From Chrysomallon squamiferum (lineage: Eukaryota > Animalia > Mollusca), in contig CM022674.1 in assembly GCA_012295275.1 (NCBI GenBank), forward strand, positions 10,602,001-10,666,000: DNA of 64,000 nt, read 5' to 3'. The translations under genes were made by a program, and so were the position numbers. The notes beneath the pieces are model-generated. The model was not told where the DNA came from and did not search any database. It worked only from the letters and a program-made list of their open reading frames with translations. Below are positions 7,604 through 52,033 of the stretch, piece by piece. Numbering within the stretch: position 1 is the stretch's first letter; the number at the start of each line of letters is the position of its first letter.

Positions 7604-7635
<32 letters not shown>

Positions 7636-8161: not shown

Positions 8162-8205
8162 TGTTGTTGTTGTTGTTATTCTTCTTCTTCTTGTTCTTCT
8201 TGTTG

Positions 8206-8264
<59 letters not shown>

Positions 8265-9312: not shown

Positions 9313-9346
<34 letters not shown>

Positions 9347-10351
9347 TATCTACACACGCACGCACGTACATATATAATTAGATACTTTATCAATGATGAA
9401 GTTGCGTTTTTATTTTTCTCGCTTATTTTTAAAATCGTATAATTCTATAAGTATTATTAAAACTATGCTTCACGAGATGATATAAATGCAAGTTATTTCC
9501 CTTGTCCAATCTTTCGTTTAAAAATGATATAAAAGATACTAGCATCCGGTTATATGGCTTCAAAACAAGTTTCTTTTGTTTATTTTTGTTTTGTTATTTT
9601 ATGATTCCGAAATATTGTCAGTTAATCAACTGAATTGATGTCATTTTTTGAATTCACCATACTGGCTTTTGAGATGTTTGTTTATTATTAGTTTATTATA
9701 TAATATTTTAATTCCTTACTAGGAGTTCTACGTAAAATTACATTATAATTCAGTTACCTCTATTCTGTATTCAGCTAGAGAAGCATTGCCGGTTATTGCG
9801 GGCTTTGGCATTGTCAGAACACGTTTTAATAATTATAAAGTAATATGTTGTGTTGGGTTTTTGATAATTCCAATACACTGGAGCAGAAATAACATAGCTA
9901 TTGTTACAGAACTAAATAAAAGCTAAGCAAAAAACACTGTAGGAAATAAATAATGTTAGAAAGGACAGTTGCAGGTCTGAGTGTATCATCATATCATGTA
10001 ACATGTTTTGTAAAACAAATAAAATTCGAGAGAAATACGTATATCACTGTATAATCGCTGTATCATATATAATATCAATTTTTAAGTTAGTTTTTTGTCA
10101 TTTGTTTCCAGAGGAAATATGATTTACATAATAATACAACTTACGTTATAATTAAAACTTAATTAAAAGGCAGTATTGAATATACCATTTTATTTATTTA
10201 TTTATTTATTTATTATTTTATTTTAATACACAGACAAACAAATTATGTAATACTTGCTGTTGCTGATTATTCCACTATTTTCTGTTTATTCAGGTTTCTG
10301 AAAAGTGTGTTTCATCAATAATCTGGTTGGCAGACAGTTATCTTCGTGTGG

Positions 10352-12399: not shown

Positions 12400-12478
<79 letters not shown>

Positions 12479-15400
12479 TGTGTATGTGTGTGTCTGTCTG
12501 TGTATGTGAGTGTCTGTATTGGTTTGTTTGTAAAGGTAACCTAAATATTTTATTTTTACTTATTTTCTTTTTCCAGATATTTGGTACAAATTTGAAAGAA
12601 ATGATAGAAGATTTGAATCAGGTATTTCAACTATTTTTATATTCTGTTTTGTAAACAATGTGAAATATATTAACAGTATAAATCACACACACACACTGGT
12701 GTATATAAAATGTTCACTATCTAATGACTAGTTATTTTTACTAAAAAATAATATGTCTGTCTCAGTATTTTTTATTACTTTACACTATATTTACATAATT
12801 TTGTATAACCAAAGACTTGTACTGTGTTTGCAGGGTGATGTGGCAGAAACTGTCAAGGTTTTCTTTGAGCAAAGCAGTAAAATGACACCAGAGAAAAAAA
12901 GCCTGCTGAGTATACAGGAGGTCAGTGACAGATCCTCTCAGCATTTGAGACCATACGTGATCTTGTTATATCACTTATTGTATTTTAACATCTTTTCAAA
13001 GTATTAACTTTTAAAAAACAATTTTTTTTTTTTTTTAAGTTATTAAAAACATATGATTTTAATATGTTTTTTGTTTGTGTGTTAGTTAATTAGATACAGG
13101 TTTTCAGAAAAGTAAAGTTAGAATCTTTATATTAAATAATTTTCAAGATGGAAGGAGTTTCTTTTATAAAATTTCTTTTGTCATTGTCAAAAAAAAAAAA
13201 AAAAAAATAATAATAATAATAATAAAAAAAAAAAAAAAAAAAAAAAAAAATACTGAAGGTGTTAAAAATGTTAATCATCATTTATGTTTTTCCAGGTAGA
13301 TGAGTTTCTCACAGACCTGGCCCAGGTAACGAGGGAAGACGACCAACAGAGAATTCTTAAAAGAATTGCTAAAAAGTAAGATACTTGGCAGTCACTTACT
13401 CTACTAATACAACTATAAAACCTAGGGGAAATGAGTAGCTTTACTTCACTAATAATTATTATGAATATTGTATAAATCACTGCCAGGAATAATACCCTTT
13501 GTTTTTTATCTGTGGATACTTCTAAAAATTTTGAAGTGCAAAAAGCTTCCAGCTCAAAGCAGGACAGATGTTCAGCCTTCAATTTAATATTTTAAGAGTA
13601 CTGAAGTGTGTTTAGAAATTTTAATAAAATTATATTTAATTTTTGTTTCAAATTATCCTTTTAATTATTAAAAATATAATTATTTATACTTAAAAATAGT
13701 GAATGTATTAATTCAGAATTTTAAATGATAACCAAAATTTAATTAATGCTGTCCTGTTACTATGTGTGTATTTGTTAATTAATTAAAACAAAGTATGTCT
13801 AGTTGTAACTGAAAACAGTTTTAATATTATAATAAAATTCTACAATATTTTTATGAAGAAAGCAGCAAGTTTTTTCATATATAAATTTAAAAAATTTATC
13901 AAAGATGTGACAGTTTTTTTTTATGTAGGGTGTTGGACATTTTGTTTTGTTTGTTACAGGTGTACTGGCAATGATTTGAAGATGATCGTACGTCTAATTA
14001 AACATGATCTGAGAATAAATGCTGGAGCCAAACATATGTAAGTTAATTAGTTATCAATATTTTAAACATTTTTTTAAAGTTTATTTCTTGTATGAACAAT
14101 AATCATAAGATAATTAAAGTAAAAAAATTCTGTCTAAACTCGAATACATCTTATGCAGTTTGAAAAGGCTCTGTTTGGAGGATTTTATTTTAAAATGAAG
14201 AGTTATTTCCCTTCAACAACTTGTAAAACATAATTTCAATTAAATATGTCTGAATTATATAAAAGACGAAATTATTATAAAAAGTTTGATATTTATTCAT
14301 ACTAATGAAGAAAAACAATATTTAGATGAATATAAATACAAATAATTGAATGTTTTTGTGTTTAAGACTTGATGGTTTGGACTCAAATGCCTATGAAGCG
14401 TTCCAAGCTTCCCGAGATCTGAAAGACGTGATAGATCGAGTAATCTCCAACACCAACGAGTCAAAACCAGGGATGACAAAAACACTCAGTATCAGAGCCA
14501 ATTTGATGACTCCAGTGTTGCCGATGTTGGTATGAATAATTTTTGTTTAATTGTGAGAATTTTGGCATTTCTTTTTCTTTTCTTTTGGTCATTGTTTATT
14601 TAATAATTTAGGATTGCATTTTCTGAAGAAAAAAAATCTTCTTTATATATATGTGTGTATGATGCACACATTATTCAGTAGTATTGCTTTCTAGATGGAT
14701 AGATTAGGAATGTGCTTGGTCATAATGTTGCAGATTTGTGACATTGTGACATTGTTTGGATCTTTTTCTTCTTTTTTTTGAACTTACTCAATTTGTAATT
14801 TGTTTTCTTCTTTAATTTTATAAATATGTGCATGTGTATTTTTTTAAATATTTTCAATTAATGTTTCTAAACATACAGGTTATGGCTATATACCTAGCTA
14901 ATTACATACTGATGTGATTAATTAATAATTATATGGTTTTGCTTAATTTATCAAGTCATTGTTGTATGTATTTTTATATTTATCTTTATTTTTTTCTTTG
15001 TTTTTGAGGCTGAAGCCTGCAAGTCAGTGGAGCAGGCAATGAAGAAATGTCCTAATGGGTTTTATGCTGAAATAAAATATGATGGTGAGAGAGTTCAGGT
15101 GCACAAGAAGGGAAATGAATTTCGTTACTTCAGTCGCAGCTTGAAACCTGTGATGCCTCATAAGGTATTTCATAGTCACATTACACATTTAATATAATCA
15201 TAATTTAATTTGACATATTAAATTTCAGTCTGTCTGTGATTCATTAAAGTGATCATAATCTGATAAACTTTAATGGGAGTGGCCTCCCTTTTCTAATAAA
15301 ATAGTTACTATACAATCTGCTTAATCTTAGAACCAAGTATCATTGTTAACTAAGTGATAATGTGTTTTGAAATAAAGAATTTGTTAACTGCTGACATATT

Positions 15401-18400
15401 TGCTAAAATATGTTTGCTTCTCAGTAAATGGTTGGTCTAGTTAAATATTATTAAATCCTATAAATTGTTTTATGTTACAATACAATTCAGTGTAGTATGT
15501 GATATATTCTTTGTTTTCTTTGAAAGTAGAAATGTAAGAAATAAAAGGGTTACTAATATTACCTAAGGAAATAAAATTTATATTTAAATTTACCTTAATT
15601 TCACTGTACTTTGAAATGTACTTTTTTATTTGTAACACTACTTTCTGAAAACATGATTTATATTAATATTTTATGTGCAGTTAATTCAGAAATTCCCAGA
15701 GTTTAATAAACCTTTTGTTGCAAACATTATATTCCAAAATCATTTTTGATATTAATGTTATCTACATTAATTATATATACATTAATTCAGGATTTAGTAA
15801 CTTTCATAATAAACTTTTATAATTCAAGCTTTCTGTTCTTCATATTTTTCACATTATTAATATTAAAGTCTCCAGTGTTTTACCTAATGATACACTTTTT
15901 GTTTAGGTGGCACATTTCAAAGACTTCATTCCAAAAGCATTTGAGACTGGTGATGATTTAATTCTTGACTCAGAAGTTTTACTTGTAGATACAAACACAA
16001 GCAAACCTCTTCCTTTCGGAACTCTTGGCATTCATAAGGTAAAATATTTGTGCCCTTTTAATTTATAGAGACTAACTATAACCTGGAGGTGGAGGTGTTA
16101 AAGTAAGTTTAATGATTTTATGTGGACAAGTATTTAACTCTCCCATTTCAACTATGATTGCTTTATTTCTGTATGATGATTTCCTAACACAGGGAAGGTG
16201 CATGTAAAGTATGCCTTATGCTAGATGGTAAAAGTAAATATGATTTGATGTCACTGGGATTCATGTCAAAAAGAAATTTGCTTGATAAAGCTTTAAAGAT
16301 AATATATATATATATTTATGTTCATAGTTATGTAAATGTTATGTGAATTATTAATTGATAAGTAAATAAAATGAAACATTTTCATAAATTCAAATATTAT
16401 AAAAATCAGACTAATCTCTGTAAAAAGGGATCATTCAGTAAGTTTTTTTATTATTATTATAATGATCTCAATTGATGCATTTTACCTTAAATATTTCCAA
16501 ATCAATGTGAACCTTTTTTTTCCATAATAGATTTTATTTTTATATTTTTGAACTTGAACAAAGGGTAAAATGTTTAATTTGTTTATTTCAGAAAGCTGCA
16601 TTTAAGGATGCCAAAGTTTGTCTTTTCATTTTTGACTGTCTTCACATCAACGGACAAAACCTCATGGACAAGTAAAATTTAAAATTTAATAAAAACAGTA
16701 ATTGAAAACAAACGAACTCTAACTGTTCTTATGATCTTTTTTATTTAAATACTTATTACTATTAATATAAAATTTGAAAAAAATCACAGTGTAATTCAGT
16801 AATTTTTATCTGAACTTTTGTTGTTCCAGCTGAGCTTTCAGAAGTTTAGAATACACAAATTTTATTTCCTGCACAAGATTATTAATAATATTTGACAAAA
16901 CTTTGCTCTTATTATTCCAAAATTAAAAATTCTAAAATTTAAGGTTATACTGATTCAAGATGTTTTGCATAAGAATTTGTAGTTTATTTCATAATAAAGG
17001 GAGGATTTTTCTTAATTTGTGCCTTTTCTGTGTCATTGTTTAAATATATAAAAAATCTTCTTCTTTTTTTTGTTAGACCTTTGAAAAAAAGAAGATCTAT
17101 TTTACAACAAGAAATGAAGGAAATTCCAAACAGAATCATGTTTTCTGAATACAAACATGTCACAGTATGTTTCTTTATTTTATTAAATTTTACTAGTGTT
17201 CATTTATTTCTATTAAATTTTGTAAACTTCACACACACTCACACACAAACACTAATAATTATTAATGATAATAAAACATTACAAAATATGTCTCAAAAGA
17301 TGATTAAAAATGTCAAGAATGAAATTTGATATAGTCATATTTTTTTCAGTTTTGAAATTAATGATATTCTCATTAAAATAAAGGAAGAGTTAAGAAACTA
17401 GTTAATTAATTTGTGCTTCAAATTAAGAAATTGATAAGAATAATAAAATGAAGATAAAACATTTTGATTTGTATTTCAGAAACCAGAAGATCTTCAAGCG
17501 ATGATGAACAGAGTTTTCAGAGAGGGTTTAGAAGGTCTAGTTCTTAAAGATGTTAATGTATGTTTTATTTATTGCAATATATGATGTTAAATATGTTATT
17601 TTCTTTATTTATTTTCTTCTTTTTTTTTTGTTAATCTGAAGTATGAAATATAATGTTACTTAGTTATTACAGTATGTTTTTTTTATTTGTATTAATCTGA
17701 GTTAATCTTTTATAGTAATAATAAAAGTAAAGAATTTTTTTTTTTTTTATTGATACTACAAACCTTTGCTAATAATAAATGTCATAAAATAATTTGTAAT
17801 ACTTTAGGAGATGGAATTTTAAGATAACTAAATTCATGAAAAACAATTTATTGGTAGACTTCTTTGTACACTCTCCATGTAAAATCAGTTTAAATCTTCA
17901 GAAATGTTTTGTTTTGTTTCCAGGGTGTTTATGAGCCAGGCAAACGTCACTGGCTCAAAGTGAAGAAAGATTATCTTCATCAGGGCAGCATGGCCGATTC
18001 AGCAGATCTTGTTGTACTCGGAGGATACTTTGGAACAGGAAATAAAGGTAATTAGAAATGCAAAAAGGAACCAACTTTATTAACTTTTTAATAAATACAT
18101 CAATGCAATATTCTACTGTAAAACAATAATTACAGTAAATAAACTTGTGATTATGTTGGCAGGCTGGTTGCTCAAAATCTGCTCAAGGACTGTTGGTGTA
18201 ATAATGGTTATAATGTACTGTTTATGGGATGGTGCATGTAAAAGATGCATTACTGCTAAACAGATAAAGCCTCCTTTGTGGTGACAGCAGGTTTTCCTCC
18301 CTCTGATCATCTGAATTAAATATGTCTAAGTGATTCTTTATATAAAACATTTTCTTTGTTCCTGTCCAGGTGGGATTATGTCTGTGTTTCTGATGGGTGT

Positions 18401-18952
18401 GTATGACCCACACACAGAGAAGTTCTGTACTGTGACTAAGTGTGGAAGTGGAATTGATGATGACATGTTGGAGAAACTACAGAAAGATCTCAACATGGTG
18501 AAAATCAGCAAAGACTTCAAGAAAGTTCCGTCCTGGCTCAATATTAAAAAAGCTGTCACTCCAGATTTTGTTGTTGTTGACCCAAAGAAGGCCCCTGTGT
18601 GGGAAATAATTGGAGCAGAGTTCAGTCGGGCAGAGATTCACACAGCTGATGGCATTTCCATTCGGTTTCCACGGATACAAAAATTTAGAGATGATAAAAA
18701 TTGGGAAACTGCAACAGATCTTCCAAGATTAAAGGTTTGTGTGTATCTGTGTATGTTTATTTGTGCGTTAGCATGTTTCTGCATGTTTATATTTTTGTTA
18801 ATTGTAATAAACACTGAACTTTGTTTTTTTGGTGTAGTACATTTTGGTAATTATTGGAACAAATTCATACAAATATCATACATATAAAATAAATTCATAC
18901 ATATTATATAAACATAACTAAATCCACACACACAAGTACACACACACAAGCA

Positions 18953-19005
<53 letters not shown>

Positions 19006-21371
19006 ACAGTTCATGTAATAATGAAGCAGTTGTTAATATGTAAAGATGTAAATGTTCTTTTTTTTAGAAACTGTTTAAAGAATCAAAAGAAAAAACTGAT
19101 CTACTTTTCCCAGCTGGAGATGAAAATGGAAATTGTGATGACAATGAGCCTGGCAGTGATGAGAAGGATACAACATCATCATCATCGTCATCAACAACAA
19201 CAACAACTACACCAAAGAAAGCAAGGAAGAGATCAGCAGATGACACTTCTCCAGAATCAACACCAAAGAAAAAAGTAAAATTTGAGAATTTATTTTCTTG
19301 GAAACAGGATTTTTAAAATAATTATTAATATCATTATCATTAAGAGTAGCAATAACAGTAGCATTATTATCATTACATCATCATCATCATCATCATTATT
19401 ATTATTATTATTATTATCATCATCATTATCACCATCATAACAATTATTATTATTGCTATTATTATTATGTTTTCTTGTTATTATTCTTTTTGCTATTAAT
19501 AATAAAATTAAAATTTGTAATCTCTATTATTTATGTTCTCTTTAACTGGAATCAAAGCTTTGGTACAAATAAACTGATAGGTTTTTATTTTTATTTTTTT
19601 ATAATTGAAGATGATTTTCTGATGACATTTACCCATCTTGTGTTTTGAGAAGTAAAACATATTTTTATTTTTATAGATGTGTGCATATGGTGTGAAGTGT
19701 TACCAGACAAACCCAGCTCATATAGCTAATTTTGACCACCCTCCTGGATACACAGTCCCACAAAAAACACCAGAGGGCAGCACTAACAGCAAGGTAATTA
19801 GCATAACTGAATATTCATTGCTTAGAAATGAAAATAACTGTCAATTATGAATTTTAAGAGAATTGTAAAAGAGTTTTGGGATGGGTTTAACTTCCTTGTT
19901 CCCTTTCCACATCTTGCTATCAGACATAAGTAAAAACAGAACTGCAGTAATCTTAGTATTCTACTAATGAGTAAGTATACAGAAACCCTATGTAACATAA
20001 ATGTAAAAGATGAGAGGTTGCTTGTTATAATTTAACTGTTTATATTTTTGTTTTCTCTAACAGAAACTGCCTGATGTTTTTCACGGGTGCAAGATTCTTC
20101 TGCCAGCAGATACAGAAAAATACAAACAACTGAAGAGATACATTATAGCGTATCTTTTTTATATTTTATTAAATATAATAATAATAATAACAAAATTTAA
20201 AATAAATAAAATAGTTACTTAACAAAACTTTCAATAATAATAAAAATACTACTACTACTACTACTAATAATAATAATAATAGTTATAATATTAATAAATA
20301 TAATGATAATAATAGTAAAATTTAAAAGAAATAATTACTTAAAGAACTTTAATAATAATAATAAATAAAGTATGACAGTAAAATAATAATTTAAAAAGAA
20401 TTTAAAACTGCTATTTGGCCACTTCACATATAATAAAAAAAAATTGTAACAATACAGCAGTGATGTTAATTATTGATAAATGTTGGAATAAATAACAGAA
20501 CTGATTTAGTTAAATGTGTTAAAAATAAAATAATAAATTAAATACTGTGTCTGATACTGACAATTAAAATTTTATTTTTTTCTGCTCTGTTCATGGTTTT
20601 TGTTGGTTTTGGGGGTGTTTTTTTACTTAATAAGTATTTTTATGTTCAGCTTTCATTTTCTGTCTGTTATTTGTAAATGATTTGTATGAATTTTGTTTAC
20701 CATTAGTTAAGTTTATGTAAGTAAAAGTAAAAACTTAAAGAAAAAAATCTGAATAAAAATATCAAAAATATGATAATAAAGTAGAAATAAATTAAATTTT
20801 TTTAAAAATTGATTTTTCTTGGAATAGATATTTTCTACAGGTGTCAGTAATTTTTGTTCTGATTTTAACTTAACAAAAAAACAGATTTGATGGTGATCTT
20901 GTTCCAGAGTTTGACAAGAACGCAGCTACACACATTGTGATTTCAAAAGGAAAGGTTTGTCAAATTTGTTTTTAAATCTTAATTAACCAGGATATCGCTT
21001 TGAAGTTCAGTTTTCATTAATGAAGTGCCTGATGATATCTATCTCACAGAATTCAAAAAAAATATCCACTAAACCTTGCTTAGATTTTTTAAGAAAAATG
21101 TACCAATAATTTATAATACTAATTGTTACAAAAATGTTCCCAGTTTATAGAACCATCAAATAACTAACATTAAAATAAAGAATAAATTGAATAAAGAGAA
21201 TTTACAGACTTAAAAATATTTAATTTCTTCTTTTTTGATATATATTTTACAAATTCTCTGCAGACAACAGAAGAATTTTCAAATGGCAAGTCAAAGCTGG
21301 TGTCTGCCAGCTGGCTGTGGGACTGCATCAAGAAGAAAACTTTGATTTCAACCAAGTCCTATCAACCCTGA
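10352..21371 (+). CDS. LIG3: DNA ligase III (mitochondrial presequence, PARP-type ZnF, DBD, NTase, OB fold, PBZ, BRCT); apparent 1-nt frameshift at about 10738-10742
   Basis: Exons: 10352(second ATG 10583)-10867, 11248-11358, 11690-11857, 12282-12388, 12577-12621, 12834-12920, 13296-13375, 13960-14037, 14367-14529, 15009-15164, 15907-16038, 16592-16671, 17077-17164, 17480-17557, 17924-18047, 18370-18734, 19068-19274, 19677-19793, 20064-20149, 20885-20954, 21264-21371, all joined in phase. Motifs: [16 protein letters not shown]...[16 protein letters not shown] (LIG3 ZnF), active site [34 protein letters not shown], and BRCT LKRYIIAFDGDLV...WLWDCIKKK. Confidence 0.97.
11959..12127. mobile_element. 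Decayed palindromic MITE-like element in a LIG3 intron
   Basis: Nested inverted matches TATACACCA/TGGTGTATA, AAATCATAG/CTATGATTT, CCACT/AGTGG and ACTTTCA/TGAAAGT around an AT-rich centre. Confidence 0.5.
18160..18355 (+). mobile_element. Degenerate Nin-domain-type SINE remnant (a second, more decayed copy at about 16185-16265)
   Basis: GGGATGGTGCATGTAAAAGATGCATTACTGCTAA...GTGGTGACAGCAGGTTTTCCTCCCTCT resembles, from memory, the conserved core of Nin-type SINEs (GGGATGGTGCATATAAAAGATCCCTTGCTGCTAA...GGCGGCAGCGGGTTTCCTCT). Confidence 0.5.
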
Positions 21372-22935
21372 CCCCGGGATACACTGTGACAAAATAAAGT
21401 ACTTAAAAACAGCTATAACAGAGTTTCTTGATTTACTTTATAATTATTATTATTATTCATTTAATTGTTGTTTATTTCATTTTATAAATATAATATGTTT
21501 TTTTTTTTTTTGACTCTTTAAACCTAATTTTTTTAATTTGGTTTTATAGAGTGTCATTTTTTCTTTATAGATATAATTGTTTTATTTTATAGATATAACT
21601 GTTGTTTATTTTATTTTATCAGTTATTTTTTTTATTATTATTATTTCACTGTATTGATAAAATTGTTTATTTATACTTTATAGATATAATTTTTTTTAAA
21701 TTTTACTATACATATATTACTGTTTTAATTTTCTTTATAGATATAATTATTCTTTTATTTGCCTTTACAGATAATTATTATTTTTTTATATTTTATTTTA
21801 TTTTTTATGTATTACTTTACAGATGTAATTGTTTTTGTTTTTTTTACTTTAAAGGTATAATTTATTTTTTATATCTCTTTCTGGATATAATTAATTTTTT
21901 TTAATTTCACTTCTATATGAATAAAATTGAATACATGTGTGATTGTGCATATGTTTAAAATACTGACAAAACATCTATACTTATGATGAATATAATGTTG
22001 GTTAGAACAGTGTTGGCAACATCCATGTCCCTGTGTGGTGTCCATCTCTTCAACTCTGCCATCGAATATGTTTGGTTAATCTGGCTCAGTGAGCTTCTGT
22101 AATTTGTGTTTGGTTGCGTAACATTACATCATGTGAAAATAACAATGTTGCAGCAGTGCACATCATATTCTGTTTCAAAACCAACAATGTAATAATATTC
22201 TTTGACAGAATAATGGACCTAAAAAACAATCAGAAAACCAGTATCTGTTTTATCCTTTGACTTACAATTTATTTTAAACTGAATATAAATATTATATTTT
22301 TGTGTTTAATAAATATTGGAGATCTATGTAAATTATTCTCTTATGGTCAGCAATGTTGGAAGTTTCAAAGGTACAGTTGGAAAAAAAGTCTTCATCCTCA
22401 CTCCCAGTGAAAAACACCAAGACTGTTGTATACCTTGCTGCCGTACAAATTGTACAGTGACTTAAAATTGTAACTTTTATTGTTTACTCCAATAAATTGT
22501 TAACTCATTAAAATTAGTTTTTTTTATTTAAACCTTTGTGACATGGGCTGAAAGACCAAGCATCACTACATAGTAGCAAGCTTTAAATTCCAGCTGTTTC
22601 TTTTATTTTACTTTATAATAAAACTGCACTAGCAGAACAAAACAGAATATTTGTTTCTAGTCTCACATTAGACCTTAAACCAGAATATCAAAATGTAAAA
22701 AATTATTCCAAGAAGATAGGATGTTATGTTGAATTTATTTAAAATGTGATGTTGGTGATACAAAAAAATGGTCTATAAAAGTATTCATACAGATCATACT
22801 TGAGAAACTTTTTCAATTTTTTAAGATTTACCCAAATAGATTAATTTACTGTAATGAAATATTAATGTGTTACAAAATTTGTTCCACAAAAATATTTCTG
22901 TAGTAAGAATGCTGAAAGGATTTTGTTGAGAACAG

Positions 22936-27856: not shown

Positions 27857-30057
27857 ATTGTTGAAGCTTCTCACCATTTAGGAACACAATCAATCAAAAT
27901 TTCTATTATGATGAAAATGCTCCTACGAAAATATCAAAAGTCGGTGAGAATATTCAACAATTATGAATTTATGTCAAACGTAACAAATATATATGCGAAA
28001 TTAAAAACAGTTTGACTTAAACTATGATTAATGTCTTTAAGGTATGTTTTAAATGTTAACAGAGGTTTCAGATTGTATTACAAACATAAACAACTTTGTT
28101 TCTAAAATCAGAAAAGAGAAAAGTTATCAGTTATGAAGGTGTAGATAAAGTATTTAACCTTTCCCCTTAACCAAAACACCAGTATCTGATGTTATCAGCC
28201 ACATAACTGTATCTACCTGTCTAAATTACAAAGTCTACTAAGTCCACGTTGTATGATTTTAACAACAAAATATAAAAATTAAGGCTCAAAGTTTTGCTGC
28301 CATAATGACAAAGTTATTTAATATTGGTGTAGAGATATGAAAACTTTAACAATATGACTAAATGAAACTATTTCAATAAATATTAATAAACTCATGTCAA
28401 CATAATCTTGTGTCAGAATTATTAATTTTAAATAGATTTGTAGTTAATTCCATATTAAGTAATAAACATATATATGTGTGTATCTCTGTATATCATTTTG
28501 TATCTGCATGTATGTGTAGAAAATATGCTATTTATATATAATGGACCAAATAAACAGAATAAATAAAAATTCAAAAAATCAATTATCCTTGACAGTCATT
28601 CAAACATTTATAATAACAAAAACAACTGAAATAAACTGTATCATTTTAGATATTTTTGAATAACAACAACATAATTAACATAAACAAATCACAGTCTGTA
28701 TAGGAATGCATAATGATTTTTGTTTTCAAGATGGCTGACACTTTTAAATTTTCTTAGTAATCTGAGAAACATTAATTAATATTATTCTTAACTGCAAGAC
28801 TTTTAAGGTTTTAAATTCATTATGCATTCTAATATTTGCAAAAGATAATATTTTTATTCATTAATTCTACTGATTTGCTTTTTACAGTTAGAAGAATCAA
28901 ACATTAGAAATAAACATATTTAATAAATAAATAATTAAATAAATGAACATACATAATAAAACAAATTAAATTACCTCAAGTGTCTAAGCCTAGTAAATAC
29001 AATTTGTTGAGAATAAAATTTGGTAGGTTTTATGAAATAAAATGAAAATCAATTTTTCAAAAGCTTATCCAACAGTTTTGACCAGTCCACATTTTGATAA
29101 ATTTGTCCCAGATGACCACTGCATATTATCATAATTATCTCCCTGTTACCACTGCAGTTTATAGAATAATAATATCTCAGTGAGCATTGTGTGTTCCTTT
29201 GTGACAGATGGAGGTTATCAGGATGATCTCCCTTCTGACCACAGCACATTTCAGAATTATTTCCCATGCTAGTACTGTACTTTTCAGAATCATCCTTTGT
29301 TACTGACAAAAGTTTTTAAAATTATCTTTACTGGCTGTGTTTCACTCAACACTAATATTCATTTTCATTAGTGATTCAATCCCAGTAATATATAAAGTTA
29401 TTTTTCTTGTGACTGTCATTTTGCAGTAACTTTCATAATAAAAACAATATTTTCCAACTGAAACAAGCACCACCATTTGAAAATTCAGTGGTTTTGGGAG
29501 ATAACCTTTTGATTAAGGAACATTAATAACAAAATTATTAATGTTTTGATCCAAAGCACTTTCATAAGCATTTTATACAGTTGTTTTGTATTTAAATATC
29601 ACAGTATATTTGTTTCTGATTTTTAACGAAGCCAGTGTAAGCACTTTCCACAGTCTTCTTGTTCCACTTTCTGTAATACCTCTTCATTGTTTACACATTT
29701 CCCACTTCATGAATCATGAATCAAATTTATCACAGTATTTGTTTTATAGTTTTCAAAAGTGTGACTGTTTTCACACATTCGTCTCTCATAATTTCCACAC
29801 AGATCATACTTTTACAATTACATTTCATATAGGATTGCCTTGGTTACCATTTTTACAAGTAAAATACTTTTAATGTCACATTTCATTTAAATATTCTTTT
29901 CCACTGGGCTGAACTTTTGATAAATTACATATTTCTTCAGGATGAACGTTTCCATAACTCTCACAGTTCCAGTCATGTATCAAATATATAAATATAAATA
30001 TTTATATGCTATCTCTGTAATGTCACACTTACATCAGTGTCACAGTATTTTTGTTTT

Positions 30058-30610
30058 TCAGATATGCATCACTAACTCAGACAACATCTGTGAGTAGTTT
30101 GTGTCTGTGCTCAGTGATGGCAAAGTCACTGATTTCCCCCCATCACCTTTCACTGTTATCACCTGTAACGATGTGTTGCCGTACACAGGACTCCGCCCGT
30201 TCTCCAGTGACAGCTGAGGAAAGAGTTTCTGAGACACGGCATCTACGAGGTATGGGTCATCAGTTCCTATCAAACCCACCAAGTTGTTGGGATTCTTTGG
30301 AAGAACCTTCTTTGGTCTGAAGTAATAATACAACATAATAATGATTAAAAACAAGAAGAAAAAGAAGAATAACAACAATAATAATAATGTCATAATAAAA
30401 AAAAAGAACAATAATGTGAAGAAAAAAAAGAACAAACAAGAAGAATGCATAATAAAAAACAATATGGAGATACCAACAACAAAAATATTATAATACAAAA
30501 ATTTAAGATGAATAAGACAACAAAACACATGAAAAATTAGAAGAAACATATTTATTTATTTACTTCTTTACTTACTTAAATATTTATTTATTTATTTATT
30601 TATTTTAGTT

Positions 30611-30661
<51 letters not shown>

Positions 30662-33600
30662 TTTCATTAGTTAGGTATTACCGTCCTCGTTTAAGTTGTT
30701 GAGGTGTCAACTTTTTATCTTCCACCACATCAAACAGTTGAAACAGCAAGTCTGTGTTTGCCACTGTCACTTTTCTTTCTGGACAACGAGGAGGTCGCTT
30801 GGTTACCTCCCTTTCTTCCCTCTCCTCAGGTGGAGTTACTGGTCTTATCTCTGAAACAATACAACAATGATTGACTCCAAACATACTTTTCTTTTAAAAG
30901 TATGTTTTGATGTGGGTGGTATCTGTGAATGTATGTGCGTGCATGTGTGTGTGTAGATTTTCAAAGGATAATTTTCATTTTAATAGAAATTGTGATTGTG
31001 TGAATGTATGTTAGTATAAAATAGTGAAGAAAAAAGATCATCTTAAATGAATAGTTGCTTTCTATTTTTGACTTTGAAAAATCTACATAGCGGCTTCCCT
31101 AATTTATAATTTAACGTTTTAATATATCTATCTTTTCCAATATCAATTTTTAACAAATAATTTGTATAAAATGTGCTTTTTTTGTTAATGCTAATGTATA
31201 AACAGTAAAGTTCATTTTTAATCTATTGGTGTTTTTGAGATTATTATTTTTTCTTTTTCTGTTGTGGATGATGAACTGGTGTGAGACACTGGATATTCTT
31301 TATAATCAGTGTCACATGAGATGTCAAAACAGTGACTTTTAAGTGATTCAAAATGATAAACACAACCAGAATGTTTGACACAACTCTTTAAATAATACAC
31401 TTCCCTTAGGCAGAAAGCTGTATTCCTCTTTCTTTAATAAAACAAGTAGATGGGTATTCAGTTTTGGCTGAAATTGAAAGTAATGTGAAACTGGAAATAG
31501 ACCATAAAAATGGTGTACTCTGAAGGATTGATCCTGAAACCTAGGAAATCACAAATCAGTGTTGTAATCATGTGATGGATCCAGGTTACTGCACTAAACT
31601 GTGATGTCATCATTTTTATTGATTCTGTCCCAGTCGTTTGTCAATTATTTAGACATGTCAAGCATCACATGATGGAAACAGGGAGACACATACAAAAATC
31701 AATGTACAGATGACAAACAGCATCTCTGTATAACATCAGTGGTTTTATCAATATTGCACTTAACTAACAAATCACTGGCCATTTAGAATTTCAGTGTGTT
31801 GTGTTTTAAGAATATAATATACAGTTTATCTCAAAATTAAATATTCTGCCTGAAAAGTATACACCACATACACACACAGTATTTCAAAATTAAATATTCT
31901 AGTTAGAAAGTATTGGAGAAACAATATACACACACAATTTCAAAATTAAATATACTGCATAAAAGGACACCAAAAATACACAACAAACATACACACACAC
32001 ACAACACATATACAGACAGACACAATTTATATATAATCAGCATAAAATAATAAAAATAATAAATCTTCAATTTTGATTAAAGAATTCTTGTCATTGTTTA
32101 AACAAATGGTTTAAACAAATTTTATGTATATAGATTTTATTTATGTCAGTTTAGAGATAATATACATTACTGGTTGTTCATTCAAATCACATAAGACACT
32201 ATGGCATACAAATACTGTATATAATTTTGTCAATCCACTGTTTGTAGATATACAGTCTGTGTTTAAATAAATAAATAAATAAATAAATAAATCTTCATAA
32301 TTAATAAAAAAAATTCTGTAATATAATTCTACAGGTTTTTCAGATCTTTAATTCTACAGTTTAAATACAAAACAGTCAATAACAAAATGTCACAGGTGAA
32401 GAACATTGTGTATTACTGTTAGCACTGCTAGGTGCCAAGTAACTAACAGTTTGTTTACTGAGGTTTGACATAAACAGGTGAATGAGGAGATCTATGAACT
32501 GAAGAAGTGATTGGGTAGAACCAGGTAATAAACAGTTGACAATCTGCCATAATTATAAAATCAGGCCCCAGCAAGCTCACCTGTGTTATTGATAATTATA
32601 ATACATTTAATAAATTTAGGTCTTTATTACAGTGAGTTTGTAGTTCAGTGGTTAGAACTCTCAACTTATGCATTTTTAGTGAAGTTTTTGACCTATTTTC
32701 AGTTCCCAACCAGTGACTTGTACATTCAAATATTTTCTTTGTTTTTACTCTCTATATTTGATAGTTGTTTTATGGGAAGGTATCTATATAAGATTACATA
32801 TTGCTAGAGAGTAAGAGTAACCCACGGAGTGTTGCAGATATGAATACTGTATATGATGCTTGTGTGCAATTTGTATTTGTGTGTGTGTATGTGTGTTTGT
32901 GTGTGTATGGATGTGAGTCTGAATATGTTTCTATGTGTGTATGGTTTGTTTGTATGATATCTGTTTGTATGTGTTGTGTCTGTATATAGGTGCATGTGTC
33001 TGTTTAAGTCATGTCTATGTGTGCCTGTGTGTCTGTGTCTGTGTTTGTGTGTTTGTGTCTGAGTGTATGTGTGTATGTGTGTATTGTGTGTGGGTTTGTT
33101 ACAATTTCATAGCAAGTCACCTTTTATAAAAGTGTAAAAGTTCTAGGTAAGATAATTATCCCAAAGCAGAATGAGAGTTATTCTTCTACAATCACAACAC
33201 ATTGAAAGTAATAAACTGTCCCAAAGGGAAGCACATATTATCATATCCTTTGTGATAAATAAACTATAGGACATTTACTGAAGTAGATCAAAATCCAAGA
33301 TGAGTGTCAGAGATATTCATTGTGGACCTTACAGCCAGCAGCCAGTCTCAGTGAGCATTTTTCTATTTTCTTTTCGTAATGTGCTGAGCAGTAAGTGATA
33401 TTACCTGTAACATCTTCCTCTGTTTCTTTGTTGTACAATGGAGGCAGGATGGGAAACATGTTGCCAGGGGAAACCTGGTGGGGCACGTTTGGTTGCTGCC
33501 AGAAAGACTGGGGCAATGCACGCAGTCGCATGGGGACTTGATCTAAAAATAGAAATTTATAAAATATTACATCTTTATAATTTCAAAATATGGAATGACA

Positions 33601-36086: not shown

Positions 36087-37479
36087 TACACACACACACA
36101 AATTCCCCCAAAACATGTATTTATACAAATTCACATTTACCGTCATATATATATATATATATGTATGTATGTATATATACTTATAGATGCTTACTCACAT
36201 ATATCCAAACATTATGCATATACACAATTTATCAACAAGCAGTTAATAATATTACAGCATAATAAATATTTATCACGGACTTAGGTTATTTATGTAGTAA
36301 ATTTTGACCAGGAGAATAATCTTATAGCATGTTCTGTTATTCATCAGAAAGTTAATACTGGCTGAATTGAATTACTTTTACAAAACATCTACTTAATGTC
36401 AACATTATGGTATGTAATGTCCTGCCAGTAATAATCCTTTTTAACAAAGCCATAATAAAAAATCAATTTTTGTCATCTAAATTTTTAAATATCTCTAACA
36501 TTAAAACTATTTGTTATTTAAATTCAACTGGCATTTCTAAACAGTGCTGTATTTTTCAAAATTTAAATTATTTTGAAATATGATGATGTAACTTCAATTT
36601 ACAGTTTAATGATGAAATGAAATGGATTTTTTAAAGAAACTAATTGGAAACATACTATGATTGTAATTTTTATTCTGTCTAAGAATTCAAAAAGATGTTT
36701 AAAAATAGGTTTATCTTGTTTTGATTCCTAACTTACTTCATGTTTAATTTTACTTTAATCAGCTTTATTCAACAGATTATAATTTTTTACAAACAGATTT
36801 CCACAGTGAAGCAGAATGATAAAACAAAGTTTTAATAAAAAACAACTGATGATGAGGTTTTTCACAGGGGTTCACATTTGTAGAAAGGTTTTACAGTACA
36901 GTTTTCTTTATCCAAAAATCTTATGTTAAATATTAATGTGAAATAAATTTAATTTCTAATTAATTGGTTTACAATAAAATCTTTTTAATTAAGTTGTTTT
37001 CCTAACATATGTAATCAGTTAAATAAACCAGACAGAGCATGAGTTTAATAGTTATTTTATTAAAGCCCATACACACCTCTTTTTGGCCTCATTTTGGGAG
37101 GCGTCTGTTCTCTTCGTCTAAATCCATCTTTAAGTGCCATGAATGATGCCGTCTTCTTTTTCTTGATTCTAGATTTGGCTACAATTTCGTGTGCATGGTG
37201 TTTGAAACCTGGAGGTCGTACATACACAGGTCCACTAGCTGTACTGCTGTTAGGTGAAGCAACATTTTCATAGTCATGATCATGATCACATCCGTAAGTT
37301 GAAACGGATGGACTGTCAGGACGGTTGCATGGACTTGGGTTTGGTAAGCTGACACTGTCACAGTGTTCTGTGTCTTCTTCATCACTAGAGTTTATGATCT
37401 GGATGGGTCCTGAGGGTCCTCTCTTGCCACCATGTTGTTTAGGAGGTGGTGGCTGAGGCAGATGCAATGCTGTTGCCAT
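30058..37479 (-). CDS. Unrecognised 322-aa nuclear protein with a YAP-like TEAD-binding omega-loop, PPxY, LxxLF helix and AT-hook
   Basis: Exons 37479-37077, 33542-33405, 30850-30682 and 30316-30058 join in phase (G|AT=D, G|AG=E, CG|A=R); 969 nt in total, ending in TGA. Proline/serine-rich, with basic NLS-like stretches (RIKKKK, PKMRPKR). A CpG-retaining promoter region lies upstream at about 37.5-38.9 kb. Confidence 0.88.
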
Positions 37480-40400
37480 AGTAACTAATCCAAATATTAA
37501 AACATATCACAGACCAGATAACAATGAATTATCACAATAATAAAGAAATGGACGGATATTTTTATTCCCAGGGGAAATAAATCAAACTTCTGCCTACATC
37601 ATGTGCTCAGAACTAAGCCATGCAGAAGACAAAATGGTTTTGGATAATCCAGTGGTTAGTTCACCGCATACGGGATTACATGGGTTTTTTAATCCCGTTA
37701 TGCCAATCAAAAACTTGAGTAAGACAAAATCGGAGTAATCAGCCACTAACTGGCGTACAGAGTAACGTGACTAATTTCTCACCGGTCTGCACACGAATGG
37801 CGTTACCTGCGATGAATGCAGACCCTCTCTCGCCAAAATAACTACGTCAGTCACAAGTGCCCTTAGCACACGCGGCCAATATCGCTGAACCATGTAATGG
37901 AACGTGCCCCTTATATGAACAAGGAAATAAATATTTTTTAAACGTCCTCAGCAACGAAAATTGGCAAGTTCAACATAATTCCTTATTATTCCACTGTTTT
38001 GACAGACATGTTGATACAACAATCGTCTCTATGCATTTCAGTCCCAAATGTCGTAGAAACGATTGTTTTGATTGGATGGTTAGGCTTTGCACGTCACAGT
38101 GAGGGTCACATGCATTACATTTTCATAATGATTTATTTTTAGAGTCTGTCTCCAGGGCCTCTTTCCTAAATCTACACACTAAATAGGTTAATCCGAAAAG
38201 CGTAACTTTTTAATTCTTGCATTCTCTAAACATTTTCATAAAGTAAGCTAAATATACAGACTTAAAATCCTAATACATTATACTTTCAAATACTCATTGT
38301 CTTCGATACTGTATTATTTTTTAATTTAATTACTTGCATTATTTTTAAAATCAATTATTTATTTATCAGAAGCTTGTTTGATAAATCATTTTACTAACGT
38401 ATAAATAATATAATTATTATATCAATGAACGTAACCTGACTGAACAGTATATCGCTATTTTAGGCAATGGGTCACACTTTTTACGTCACTGGTTACAAAA
38501 GTTATAGTTAGTTATACACTTGTTATAAATATGTTTTGTTTGCTACAGATCTCGATTCAGTAACTTTTTTCCATTGTCTACCGAATGTTTTATTTACCTA
38601 TATCGAAACACTTCTGTTTTGACGTGTTCAGTTTTCATTTGTATTCTTCTTCTGCTTCTTCTTATTATTATTAAAATATGAAAAGAATACATAATAGAAA
38701 AATATTAAAAAAGAATAATCTTTATTGTTAAATATTTGCTATATAATAAAGAAAATAATATATAAACTATACTTTTGAACTTGGCATAACTTGTTGCACT
38801 AATCCAAATGATATTATATGAGACACTTCAATTATTTTCTCCCAATTCCAGATATGAGACCTCACGTAACTATTGTGGGTGTATGTATGTGTGTCATGAT
38901 TATTAATTATTATTATTGTAACAAAATAATGTAAAAAAAAACTTCATATAGAAAATAGTTTAATTTTTCTACACTTTACCCTGTGTTGTGGCACATCAAT
39001 GATTTGAAATTTTGAAATTGTTTAATCTACTTTCCCTACAAAAACATTGTGTGATAGAATTTTAGAAATTCCAAAATTTTATACACTATTTATACATAAA
39101 TCAAATATAATAACATTCTATCAAATAATTTGAAATTAATCAACACATTATCTTGAAGGTAAGTTTATTTACACATTTCAATCCATTTGACTGGGAGGAA
39201 TTAAAATAAACAACATGGCTGATGCACATTTGCAGCCAAATAAGCCCACCCCCATTCTTCGAACTGAATGTGTATATATATCCAACACCCCTTTTTGAAA
39301 TATCCATATTGTTGATTTCCCTCCTATATCGGATATGTTTTATTTCCCAGCAATATGAATATGTGGTTTTTGTACAGAATTTTAGTTCCATACAACTGGT
39401 ACAAGATGTATATTGTCCAGACTCTGAAAAAAAATGCTTATATAAAATTACATCTGAGACTAACAGTAAAAGTTAGGTGGGTTTTTTTTCATATGAAAAC
39501 TCTTATGACAAAATTACAAATATAAAACTGCTAACAACAGAAAATTAATCAATATTCCCAGTGTTTGTTAAACAAAAAATCTTTTTGTTTTAAATTTTTA
39601 ACTGATTGTTTTTCTGTATCTAAATGTATAGAAAATAAAAAAACATTTCATATACACATAGTAACACTACATATATAATGCCATTAAACTACATGTTAAA
39701 AAAGTAGTTCTAAAAACAGTACAAAAGGAAATATTAAAAACATTATATAAATTCTTGAGTAAAATTGTAATTTCAACATTACTGAATGAAAAATGCAACA
39801 GATAATTTACAGTTCAAACAAGTGACTTTATCTGTTTGTTATGTCAGAAGAAATGTAAGTACAGGTTGATTATTCCCCATGTGAAATGAACAGGCATAAA
39901 TGATTAAAATTTTGTAACAAATGGACACAGATAATGAGATTCAAGAAAAAATTCAAAATATATTTATAGCACACAGCATAGTCCTATTTAATTATAAAAA
40001 TAAATTAGTGTATGAAGTAAATTTTTCTATGCTAAACCACATAAATCTACAAACCATCAACATCTTGGCTGACAGAAATTTCAAATTAGAGATCCTAAAC
40101 TTGTAAACCCTTGATATTTTTCTTACCATTATTCTTTTCTTTTATTAGTTTTAATATCACTTTTATCACATATACTTGTATACAAATCACTGAGGTTCCA
40201 TTATTATTTAATGTACACATTAGCATTAGCATACATATTAATTTTTTACAAGACAATTTATTAGATTTATTGTAATTATTAGTATTATTAATATTTTATT
40301 CAAAAAGAATAAAAATGAAAACAAAACAAAAGAAAGAAAGAGAAAGGACAAATTCCTTTTTATTTTTCCACAGTCAGTGTAGATTAAATATTTTCTCATA

Positions 40401-41764: not shown

Positions 41765-44700
41765 ATGTTTTATGATAAATAAAAGTATATGTTTGCCAAA
41801 ATAAAGATTAACTACTTGTGTTCTCACTTTTCAATCTGCATAAACATTGATTATTATGTTAATTAAGATAATCAATGGTCAGGTTCATTTCAGAAGTAAT
41901 ATTCTGCAGTTCTCTCCCCTGTGTAACAATGCAATACTGACCACAAGCTAAACAGTGCAACACAGACTACATAGTGGAACACCAAAGACAATGTCTGCAT
42001 TTTTCTGAAAAACTGATTTTAATCAGGACCACCTTGCAGAGAACACTCTGAAAGTTGTGTCCCTTGGATAATGACAGAATACTAACTACAAGCTAGGGTC
42101 ACTAATAATAAGGTCATCTATGTTTTCTTCTTTCTCTTTTTTTATATACAACCAACTCTATCCCCAAGATATTATCAACAATAACAGTTTCAATGCAGAT
42201 GAAGAAAAAGCCAGTTTTAAGTGAAGGACATATTGAAGTGGACATACCTGACATATTTCCCATGGATGAGCATCAGAAACCACAGTTTGATCATATTCCA
42301 TGATGAACTGTTCCCATAATTCATCAGATTCAGTGCCATAGCAACATGAGAATGACAGTTGTCACAACATAAATTGTGCTGAAGAAGATACATTACTTAT
42401 TATTTGTAGAAGAAACATCAAAATAAACTTTCAGTCAAAATTATCCAATATAAATATTTTATATATAAAATTAAATGTTAACTAAAAGTTATCCAGCACT
42501 TACACAATCAAATTACATTTCAAGCAATTATAAAAATAATAAATATATACAGATAAAAATAAAAACCACCAAACTAAATGACAATATGGCAAGTATTTTT
42601 ATACTTGTATTTCTGAAATTTAATAATAAGCCATTATTCTCACCATTCTATGACTATATTCCTCTGAAGCATCTGCAACAGCTGAGTCCCAACCATCTTT
42701 TCCATTTTTCACTTGTTGAATATCCAACTGCCAGTACCTATACACAATAACAAAAATTTAATTTCTTATCAAACTTGAAGAACACATTGACTTACTGGGC
42801 TGAATTCCAAAATACTATGGTTACAGCTATTACACTAAAATAATTTTGTAAGTTTGAAATAGGACATGTAAATTTAGCAATTTTCTTTTACTTGTGTGAT
42901 AACATCCTAATCCTAGCAAACATAACAGCTTTAAAAAAAAAATAATAATAATAATAATAATTGAATAATATCTCATATATAGTTTTAAATCTTGTATCAC
43001 TTACAAAACAAATTATTAAATCAGTTAATGCTAAATTTATTTTTTACTTTTTATTATTCTGACATCATTATTAAATAATATGAAAGCAGACATGTATGTA
43101 TATCTAAGCAGATGACTGATTTGGTATTAGATTATATTGAAAGTATTAATAATAATGTTAATGCGCAAAATGATAAATATACTAACTTTGTAGGATTTCC
43201 AAATCCCATGTTGTCTTCCTGCAATTAAATAGTTAATAAAATAATATATAAATACATATATATATATATACCTTGACTTATGAGTTTAATTTGTTTCATG
43301 ACCAAGCTAGTAACTCAAATTGCTCATATATAAAATGAATTTTCCTAAACAAAATTAATTGAAAAACCATTAATCTGTTCCAGTCCCCCAAAACCACCCC
43401 AATTTTTTGTAACATATTTTTAAATAAGAAAAATGTATGTATAAATGACAAATATTGTTTAAAAACAAAATACATGAAAATGTAAAGAAATAAATTGGTT
43501 TTGTAAAGTGAACATCTTTTCATGGACAGAGGCCTGCAGCTTAGAAATTATTTTAACACCTTTGTCTGGAGTTATAGCCTTTATCAACTCCTTCTGCTTC
43601 AGTATGGTACATATCGTAAAAGTACTACAGTATTCCCTCGCTATTCGTGGGGGTTACATTCTTTACCCCCCGCGAATAGCGAAAAACCGCAAATATTGGA
43701 TGCAGTTTTAAAACGTCTATTATGAGATTATATACGGTACTAAATGCTTCCCAAACACTTTCTAAAGACACTCTTACTCATTAATACAGTAATAATGTAG
43801 TAATATTGCATGCAGTTATGTATTTCACTAATGTAGTAATGATAATGTAAACACATTTTAATTTTGTACTGAAACAATATTTTAATCAGAAAGAAACGTA
43901 AGTACAGGAGGACAGTAACACCGCATAGCATAGTTACCCATACTGTATTACTGTACAGTAAAGTCATTTTCTATGCGTACAACATATGTGTTAGAATTGA
44001 CAGAAAGTGGAACAAATTTAAAGGCAAACAGACAGATAAATAAACAGTTCAATAATAATACAATTCAGCACAGTTAAAGGTAATAATAACAAAAAATTCA
44101 GTAATAATATGCAATTAAAAACATTATTAATACACGGTCACAAAAAATATTGTTTGTGCTGTCACCAATAATGAATGATAATAAAATGATGATGAAATTT
44201 GCAGTGCCATACGATGATGATGATAACACTAATGTACAGTATGGCACAGCTTAGCTGCTGCTTTACAGCACTTTAGGTAATTATTCCTACTCTTCAGGCA
44301 CTTAAGTCTCTATGACCTACAAAAACCCGGTTTACCGAGCATTTGTTTTTATGACGTTATGACGCTAGCCTGGTATACCAGCATACGATGCGATAGGGTT
44401 AAGAGCCTAACCCACGAACATGCGGGGCCGCGAATGGGGAACCGCGAACAGGTGAGGGTATACTGTATGCTCGTACTACTTAGCCATGTTGACAATATGT
44501 AAACACACACAAACACACACACACACACACTCACATACAAATAGGTCCAGCACTTAATTCATAAAACACACACACACAATAATATGATAGCAAAAAGAAA
44601 TGTATAAACATAATTTCTACCCAAATGAGAAAATATTAATATGCATTTAACATAGATTTCAATTCAAAAACTTTATTATTTATAAATATCAAAACATAAA

Positions 44701-49637: not shown

Positions 49638-52033
49638 CCAGTTTAAAAAAAAAGACTCTATTTTGCCCTTTAACTGATGTAATTGGATGTATTGAGTTAT
49701 ATGTTTTTGATATATTTTTAGTTTGAGCGTGTTCCTACAGCATCTGCCCTATGTTCCCAGCACAAGCTACCATCAATTCACGATTACGACAGAAGTGAAT
49801 GCTTACAGCAGAGTTGTGAATGTAAAAACAAACTACATCCATCAGCAAACTTTACATCAGATGACCATTTTAAAAATGACCAATCAAACAATACACAGCA
49901 AGTAACATCGACAACATACATCAGTGAAAATAGTCTGGAATCAAAACACACAGAAAATAATTCACTAACAAACCATCCAAGCTGTAATTCTGAACTCTCA
50001 CAGAGTGAGTCAGTGAGTAAGACTCAGTTTGACTGTGAGTTATTGTTAAACAGTGAGTGTGGATCAAAACAGCAAGAAGGAAAGTTAGATAATGCTAAAA
50101 ATGAAAAAGGACATGAAAGGGGTCGACAGACGTCTGTTAGTGATAATTCCTGCGACAGTTTGGATAGTTTTAACTTGGATGGTAAGGTGGACCCCGTAAA
50201 TCTTCCTAATTCACCCGAGTCCTGGGAACTTCCAGATCTGGACGTAAATCAAAATGTGTTTGACAGTTCGGATAAAGTGAACTGTGACCAAACCAAGAGT
50301 GAAGAACAAAACTTTAATGATCAGGAAAATTCTCAGAAAACTCTTCAAGACATTCAGAATACAGATCACATGTCAAATAGGTTAGAAAAGTTATTGGTTT
50401 TTAATTGAAACAAAAAAAATTTGTTAAAACAATTAAATAATATATGATTTTCACCATTACAAAACTATTTTCACCACTAATAATGAGTCAATGAATAGGT
50501 TTTGTTAAAAATGCTGTTATACTCTGCTTACTTTGTTTTTATAACATTAAATAGTTAATCATCCAAACACAAAAATTAAATTTAATTAATTACATTCATA
50601 CCGTAAGTAAAAATTAATAAATTTTTGACAATGTAATTTTTGACTTAACAGTATATCAAATGTTTTAATAAAATGTATTTATACAGAATACAGATCATAT
50701 TATACCAAATACCCTAGAAAAATAGTAATATTTAAACTAAATCTGTATGTTGTGAAAGAGGGAATGATCACAGAAGTTTTCAAACATATAGGAAACATAA
50801 CTATGCAAATACTTAAAGGGACAGAAACTAATAATTTATATAGACAACAGCTATTACCAAGCTAGTTAATATTCTGAAAAGATAAATCTCTGTATGTATG
50901 AGGTTAAATGTTTTTATGGTGAGAAATGATTATTGAGTAATTTATGTATTTTAAACTGCTAATCAAATTTAAAAGTCTAATTTGTTGTTACATATTTTGG
51001 ATAAAGATTTTTGTTTTTGTTTGAATGATTAATAGAGTTTATTTTAAAACAACAACAATAATATTGACAATGTTATTAATGGATTTAGTACCTGGGGACT
51101 ACATTAATAATTTAATGCTGTCACACAGATGATTACTACCACAAAAGCTTTTGGAAGCCTGTACTTTAGTTGGCAGTATTGAAAAACATTTTACTTACAC
51201 ACAGAAAAACTATTTTTATATCAAATTTGTTTCCTAAAACAGAAGTTAACATAACTGTGTCAGAATTGTATAATAACAGAAACATATTTTCATACTCAAT
51301 ATTTTTTTCTGAACAATACATTTAACTAAATCAACATGTTAGATGTTATAGGGTTTCACATTTAAATTTTTTTTTTAAATTTTATTATTTTTAAATGCAT
51401 CAGCCTAACAAGTAACTTTTGTCTCAGCAAACTACAGAACATGATTCCATATTCAGTTCAGTTCATGCAGTCCATGTTGTTACCAGACTGTCAATTTGTT
51501 TCCTGGATGCAGATGTCTTCCTGAATAGAAACTTAGTCAAAGTTAATGAATTTTCAATTTCTAACAGATGTCACTAAATGATTTTAAATGATCCTGCTAT
51601 AAACTGATTCAAGGATTTTTTTTTTTTTTATATATATGTCTATTGATATAGATATATATATATATAGATATCAATTATTTTCTTTGTAATCTGTTTTGTG
51701 CTTATAATTTTTTTATACACTCACACACCCACATTCTGTATTGTTTGACATTTTCTGACACACTATGCAAGTTACATTCAGTTCACTATTCTCATTATCT
51801 TTTTCTTCAGTCAACATGTCATGGTTGACTTCACATTTTTATCCAGGTACAGAAATAAGTGAATAGTTAATAACATTTACAAATAATCAGGCCTGGGTTG
51901 TTGTTTTTTTGTTGTTGTTTTTTCACTTGTTTATTACATTATAAGCAGTTTTTATTTAATTTAAACTGTTATTGTATTTGTTTTTAATTATCATTTTATT
52001 TGTGTTTGATTATATGTTTGTTATTAACTAATT

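Follow-up and report, generated by a model that had tools for sequence, protein, structure and literature searches.

The window, by which we mean the whole 64-kb stretch of Chrysomallon squamiferum DNA that was analysed, is AT-rich animal DNA with many microsatellites. A multi-exon gene with ankyrin repeats (Pfam) lies on the minus strand at 25-3794 and, judged by eye, is presumably TRPC-type channel-like. A DNA ligase III-like gene runs along the plus strand from ~6700 to 21400, where Pfam found a weak zf-PARP and the ligase C-terminal region; a PBZ (zf-CCHH) finger is encoded in an open reading frame at 19677-19847, in or beside this gene. Further along, Pfam identified an RTE1-like exon at 42220-42396 on the minus strand, which we take to be of the TMEM222 type. 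Two long coding-like open reading frames on the plus strand, at 49722-50405 and 54641-54955, have no Pfam match; inspection by eye suggests a PHD-like arrangement of Cys residues in the second.

Between the ligase III-like gene and the RTE1-like exon lies a minus-strand gene of four exons, the subject of what follows. It encodes a protein of 322 aa with a single stop, and all its introns are GT-AG, with phases of 1, 1 and 2. The coding part of exon 1 (37479-37077; residues 1-134), defined by the spliced translation with its junction to exon 2 taken from RNA contigs, contains a basic GGKRG and acidic patches, a D-H-x-Y motif, an SPxSSTxSGP..GF block and a lysine run. Exon 2 (33542-33405; 138 nt) encodes a predicted omega-loop followed by SP and LPPL motifs. 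A sequence-only reading of this locus had quoted a 16-residue motif, preceded by an Asp, as the opening of exon 2; minus-strand positions 33537-33490 do translate as quoted, and the Asp codon spans the exon 1/2 junction. Exon 3 (30850-30682) carries RPVTPP, a variable linker, a strand-like segment with an LxxLF helix and the first half of an AT-hook-like motif, whilst the coding part of exon 4 (30316-30058) carries a DP..V helix block, a hairpin-like segment, LPSL, a terminal amphipathic helix and the stop. Exons 2 to 4 were placed by translation and RNA contigs, with the sequence alignment as further support for the last two.

The 322-aa four-exon gene is real and is transcribed. Five public runs contain the last exon and the 3' UTR: four RNA runs, all from a single study, and run X5, of unknown kind, from a second study. 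Contigs in 3/3 RNA runs searched over 33100-33600 cover exon 2, and exon 2 only, without mismatches, and their loose ends match the last bases of exon 1 and the first bases of exon 3. Over 28900-31000, position 30682 is joined directly to 30316 in 3/3 RNA runs, and a single 2622-nt contig of run X1 contains exons 2-4 in series and runs on into exon 1. Run X5 behaves like DNA, continuing into the intron at 30682/30316, and has no contig over 33100-33600. Contigs give neither an expression level nor a start site. The 3' UTR extends for at least ~1.1 kb (28957-30057, minus strand; contigs from X1, X2 and X4).

The segment in exon 2 that corresponds to the TEAD interface-3 omega-loop comprises residues 137-152, equivalent to YAP 84-99, and is encoded at 33490-33537 on the minus strand. 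It matches the Pfam model PF15238 (TEADIR3) at 16/16 positions with 35.1 bits against a cut-off of 26 (E = 1.4e-8), whilst exons 1, 3 and 4 have no Pfam match above cut-off. A search of the PDB with the exon-2 peptide returned seven matches, FAM181A and six YAP chains. The alignments bear out the earlier estimate that 11 of the 16 residues are identical to the YAP1 loop, with the main anchors kept. They also agree with the earlier statement that a Trp is shared with FAM181A: the best match is a FAM181A peptide (6L9F, E = 0.0027) with Trp at the equivalent position. Across all six frames of the window, a loose form of the loop pattern gives a single match.

To define the relatives of this protein, we used exon 1 and then family profiles as queries. 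From 377 candidates the exon 1 search retained 42 proteins; those that carry a name are uncharacterised or arbitrarily named proteins of molluscs, brachiopods and annelids. A 23-sequence profile compared with 1.84 billion representatives gave 365 matches at E up to 1e-3, with 72 at 1e-30 and the best 150 of the 365 listed, and a 36-sequence profile gave 209 matches among 7992 candidates, with the best 120 of the 209 listed. Taxon names were taken from these 120 matches and 30 further records; many matches are unnamed. Among the matches listed, members outside the arthropods and deuterostomes come from corals, a jellyfish, molluscs, annelids, nemerteans, a brachiopod, bryozoans and a rotifer. 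Arthropod members among them come from chelicerates, a millipede, crustaceans and insects, the last including a mayfly, a damselfly, cockroaches, a termite, stick insects, locusts, thrips and beetles. The deuterostome members listed come from echinoderms, the hemichordate Saccoglossus, the amphioxus Branchiostoma and the tunicate Styela. No vertebrate, dipteran (fly), nematode, sponge or non-animal protein was found among the named matches listed; because many matches are unnamed and the lists hold only the best-scoring share of all matches, the family is no more than apparently lost from vertebrates, flies and nematodes.

The main alignment contains 87 near full-length sequences picked from 255 family proteins, and a wider set contains 135. 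The closest relative of the window protein is an abalone member with 60% identity. A quick tree was built from 45 rows, the window protein together with 44 named proteins selected to span the taxa. In it, the window protein falls among the molluscs and the branching broadly follows animal groups, with 17/42 inner branches open. Argonauta, the only cephalopod named among the matches listed, has a very long branch and 29% identity to the window protein. Sixteen open reading frames, ten of them from coral-type clusters, end at the point of the third intron of the window gene, which suggests that this intron is shared. Long or fused forms are represented by 2/7982 candidates: in one, an oyster gene model, a receptor domain is joined to the family sequence, and the other is a member of 792 aa. 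Both are weak evidence. The family profile has no similarity to a TEAD profile.

The sequence-only reading would have been undermined by a loop that varies between orthologues; instead, the loop is a strongly conserved island across many phyla. PF15238 was matched in all 23 family members scanned (E up to 0.1), and the 87-sequence profile gave ten PDB matches, only FAM181A and YAP chains and all via the loop. The residues named in PMC7784741 as key to the binding or folding of the YAP loop are M86, R89, L91, P92, S94, F95, F96 and P99. R89, P92, S94, F95 and P99 are invariant in the 87 aligned members; the M86 position is M in 85 and L in 2, the L91 position holds L in 78 members and F in the other 9, and the F96 position is W in 85. 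According to the same paper, YAP orthologues tolerate the substitutions seen in the family, and affinity rises when YAP 96 is a larger aromatic residue. By its PF15238 score and its YAP-equivalent anchors, the exon-2 segment is, at the level of sequence, an omega-loop, and the window protein very probably binds TEAD. The loop might instead resemble that of YAP by convergence or as a relic, and bind something other than TEAD, for short motifs can converge and TEAD binding is here argued from homology. We regard this as highly improbable, since from corals to tunicates the TEAD-contacting positions are invariant whilst the non-contact positions vary.

The earlier reading also held that the protein is not YAP, VGLL or FAM181. 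The window protein contains a single Trp and so has no WW domain, as had been claimed; the bare W-x21-W spacing occurs in 2/87 members, and Pfam found no WW domain in 23 members or in the two long forms. The Tondu motif is likewise missing, VxxHF being absent from the window protein and from all 87 members, with no Pfam match in the 23 scanned. Sites for LATS follow the pattern HxRxxS, which is found in neither the window protein nor the 87 aligned members, and in 2/135 of the wider set. Like YAP, TAZ and Yorkie, the window protein has an LxxLF helix in addition to the 11/16 loop residues and main anchors; unlike them, it has neither WW domain nor HxRxxS, the order of helix and loop is reversed and the linker is much longer. 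A YAP-type LxxLF helix 4-15 residues before the loop occurs in 0/87 and 0/135 members. With Vestigial and VGLL2 it has in common the omega-loop and the lack of a WW domain, and with Vg the Trp cap (PMC7566471), but the family has no VxxHF, and the strand and helix of Vg and VGLL2 are N-terminal to the loop (PMC7566471). The window protein is not YAP or VGLL.

FAM181 and PERCC1 require a closer comparison. FAM181A and FAM181B resemble the family in having an omega-loop and no WW domain, and FAM181A also has the Trp cap and is the best PDB match. PERCC1 is, like the window protein, a small motif-based protein and a predicted TEAD binder that also occurs in invertebrates (PMC9710580). The family could represent an invertebrate branch of FAM181 (or PERCC1), diverged and with the N-terminal block lost, and would then be in the literature already. 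The supplement of the PERCC1 paper calls the same Pfam model FAM181/PF15238, and the published FAM181/PERCC1 alignments include oyster, limpet, Lingula and amphioxus sequences (PMC9710580), both of which would suit such a branch, as would the FAM181A-like Trp. However, two short patterns for the FAM181 N-terminal motifs, taken from salmon FAM181B and used as patterns rather than profiles, match 0/87 members, in line with the earlier claim that this block is missing. The family has its own conserved blocks over ~300 residues and an AT-hook-like motif. No LxxLF is found before the loop in any aligned member (0/87) or in the wider set (0/135), whereas PERCC1 has interfaces 2 and 3 consecutively in that order and an N-terminal helix shared with FAM181 (PMC9710580), and FAM181B has LxxLF before the loop (salmon sequence; PMC9710580). 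The sources differ on the last point, as a review (PMC10146773) describes FAM181A and FAM181B as having no helix. The family occurs in insects, whereas PERCC1 is reported as absent from hexapods, tested on Drosophila (PMC9710580). No named match among the best 120 of 209 is called FAM181 or PERCC1, nor YAP, Yorkie or VGLL, so that an already characterised orthologue did not emerge. Neither the family motifs nor five family gene IDs appear in the YAP BLAST supplement of PMC7784741. On this evidence we consider a FAM181 or PERCC1 branch unlikely. Set apart by short patterns and by the order of the interfaces, the window protein is probably neither FAM181 nor PERCC1, and we are fairly confident that the family is separate from the known cofactor families, the comparison with FAM181 and PERCC1 being one of patterns and not of full-length profiles.

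Downstream of the loop, residues 206-223 (30723-30776, minus strand) comprise the strand-like segment and an amphipathic LxxLF helix, a candidate TEAD interface-1/2 element recognised from the alignment, a shuffle test and an AlphaFold2 model of the abalone member. LxxLF is found at the aligned position in 82/87 members and hydrophobic-x-x-[LM]-F in 87/87; in shuffled proteins, LxxLF occurs anywhere in a mean of 5.3/87 and a maximum of 13/87. The spacing from loop to LxxLF is 47-136 residues, with a median of 63 across the 87 aligned members. The Phe of the motif is invariant, the motif is preceded by an acidic residue and an Asn resembling an N-cap, Val/Ile is conserved at Phe+3, and the strand-like segment lies in front, a context that by eye resembles the YAP helix of PMC7784741. 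For YAP, the isolated loop has a Kd of ~4 uM and the loop plus helix ~60 nM (PMC7784741), a difference that gives a reason for keeping a second site. Helix docking on TEAD in the reversed order is, in our estimate, a little short of an even chance. In YAP, PERCC1 and FAM181B the helix is N-terminal to the loop (PMC9710580). Searched against the PDB by itself, exon 3 resembles none of the YAP or VGLL chains there (the two matches, at E up to 10, are unrelated proteins), so the assignment of the helix comes down to a five-residue pattern. The family helix is also more hydrophobic than that of YAP and could bind a partner other than TEAD.

The family may then be a loop-only TEAD binder like FAM181A, in which the LxxLF helix serves a co-repressor, an export receptor or self-association. 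FAM181A is described as binding through its loop alone (PMC10146773), is the best PDB match and has the same Trp cap. No similarity to the YAP helix region could be detected in exon 3, and the YAP helix-loop linker is 4-15 residues (PMC7784741) against 47-136 in the family. The exact LxxLF, with its invariant Phe, N-cap-like Asn, acidic residue, Val/Ile at +3 and strand-like segment, argues for the two-site arrangement instead. We give the loop-only form a substantial but minority chance; it differs from our preferred model in the role of the helix only.

Several further motifs accompany the loop and helix. The D-H-x-Y motif (residues 67-70; 37270-37281, minus strand) fits the HCF1-binding consensus and is found in 23/87 members, mainly lophotrochozoan; in the accessible text of a preprint (bioRxiv 10.64898/2026.03.19.712392), only some peptides with this consensus bind. 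It is followed by a conserved Ser/Thr-rich block and then GP.Y.R..GF (residues 75-92; 37204-37257, minus strand), with SP..SST.S in 89/135 members; the block is possibly a phospho-switch. An RP-[VI]-TPP motif is conserved at 30828-30845 (minus strand), with [VI]TPP in 87/135 members, and presumably resembles an Fbw7-type phosphodegron. A PPxY of the WW-binding type at 33433-33444 (minus strand) was set aside, being common to only 4/87 members, and the firefly members are without the LPPL motif. RGRP (residues 235-238; 30307-30695, minus strand), split by intron 3, is present in 72/87 members. The core of an AT-hook is RGRP flanked by basic residues, and we take this motif to be AT-hook-like; Pfam made no AT-hook call in the window protein or in the 23 scanned members. 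C-terminal to RGRP, the alignment indicates a DP-led helix, a hairpin-like segment and a terminal helix (residues 310-322).

AlphaFold2, run on the 87-sequence alignment with the abalone member modelled, gave a pLDDT of 52.6 and a pTM of 0.19. The model is mostly disordered with five short helices, including the loop turn, the LxxLF helix and the terminal helix (equivalent to residues 310-322), the last with the highest pLDDT, ~80. A mostly disordered, low-confidence model of this kind fits a chain of binding motifs, as would be predicted for a motif-based cofactor. A search of the ESM Atlas with the abalone member was discarded as noise, as the best score was 0.83 (NEXMIF/DUF4683), none reached 0.9 and the structure TM was below 0.2.

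Taken together, the window protein appears to belong to an ancient, unnamed and predicted-disordered family that likely binds TEAD/Scalloped by a YAP-type omega-loop and competes with YAP/Yorkie for the same pocket, a reading to which we assign a probability of about 0.78. In the first and best supported step, which follows from homology, the loop would dock in the interface-3 pocket of TEAD and exclude YAP/Yorkie. Met139, Leu144 and Phe148 would form the core of this contact, polar contacts would come from Arg142 and Ser147, and Trp149 would serve as a cap. In the second step, to which the near-even estimate for the helix applies, the strand and LxxLF helix 47-136 residues downstream would fill interfaces 1 and 2, so that TEAD would be held at two sites, in the opposite order to that of YAP; the linker of at least 47 residues should be long enough for this. 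More weakly, the AT-hook-like motif may add a contact with DNA, and the C-terminal module and, in lophotrochozoans, D-H-x-Y may recruit co-regulators such as HCF. The basic patches suggest that the protein would be a nuclear adaptor. Without a WW domain or an HxRxxS site, it would act outside canonical Hippo kinase control. We lean slightly to the view that its net effect would be to dampen YAP output or redirect it, and not simply to activate. The sequence-only reading had allowed that the protein could compete with or replace YAP/Yorkie; replacement is unlikely for a protein without WW domains and LATS sites, and competition appears to fit better. That reading did not include the LxxLF helix, the AT-hook-like motif or the breadth of taxa in which the family occurs.

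No description of the family was found in the open literature, including by member accessions and the loop sequence; subscription papers and bioRxiv supplements were outside the scope of this search, and a passing mention of the family elsewhere is possible. In the accessible text of PMC8526868, FAM181 is used only as a domain label in YAP. Public records of family members already carry PF15238, attached automatically. The locus thus holds an expressed gene whose family, likely one of TEAD cofactors, appears to be undescribed. Hippo signalling ends at TEAD, and the few cofactors known to bind the TEAD surface were found in humans and flies. As a broader and more tentative proposal, which we hold to be somewhat less probable than its negation, the family may constitute a class of TEAD cofactor that is ancient and stands apart from YAP/TAZ, VGLL, FAM181 and PERCC1. 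It would date back to the common ancestor of cnidarians and bilaterians, with losses in vertebrates, flies and nematodes, and would combine a permuted grip (loop, then strand and LxxLF helix) with a tether to AT-rich DNA, giving most invertebrates a Hippo-independent TEAD output. A TEAD-binding family kept in many other animal phyla, yet apparently missing from the human and fly models, would mean that TEAD is regulated in corals, molluscs, crustaceans, echinoderms and amphioxus through an input so far unrecognised, one of relevance to studies of growth and regeneration in these animals. A natural loop-then-helix order, if true, would mean that the two main sites of TEAD can be bridged in reverse, which would bear on cofactor evolution and on the design of TEAD-binding peptides.

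The flanks of the transcript provide some further observations. MCAT-like sites are not enriched in the window (7 against 8.5 expected) and none is near the promoter. Four of the 14 TGACGT (CRE-like) sites in the window fall within 780 bp (37844-38625) around the inferred start of the gene, a cluster noticed post hoc in a total at chance level (14 against 11.7 expected). The 5' leader, if unspliced, would be ~550 nt long (37480-38033, minus strand), as deduced from the coordinates of the X1 contig. It would contain nine upstream ATGs, one of which opens a 40-codon uORF at 37893, and these may exert translational control. At the other end, behind 29787 in the 3' UTR, runs X1, X4 and X5 have a 17-nt insertion relative to the window together with scattered substitutions, which are probably alleles.
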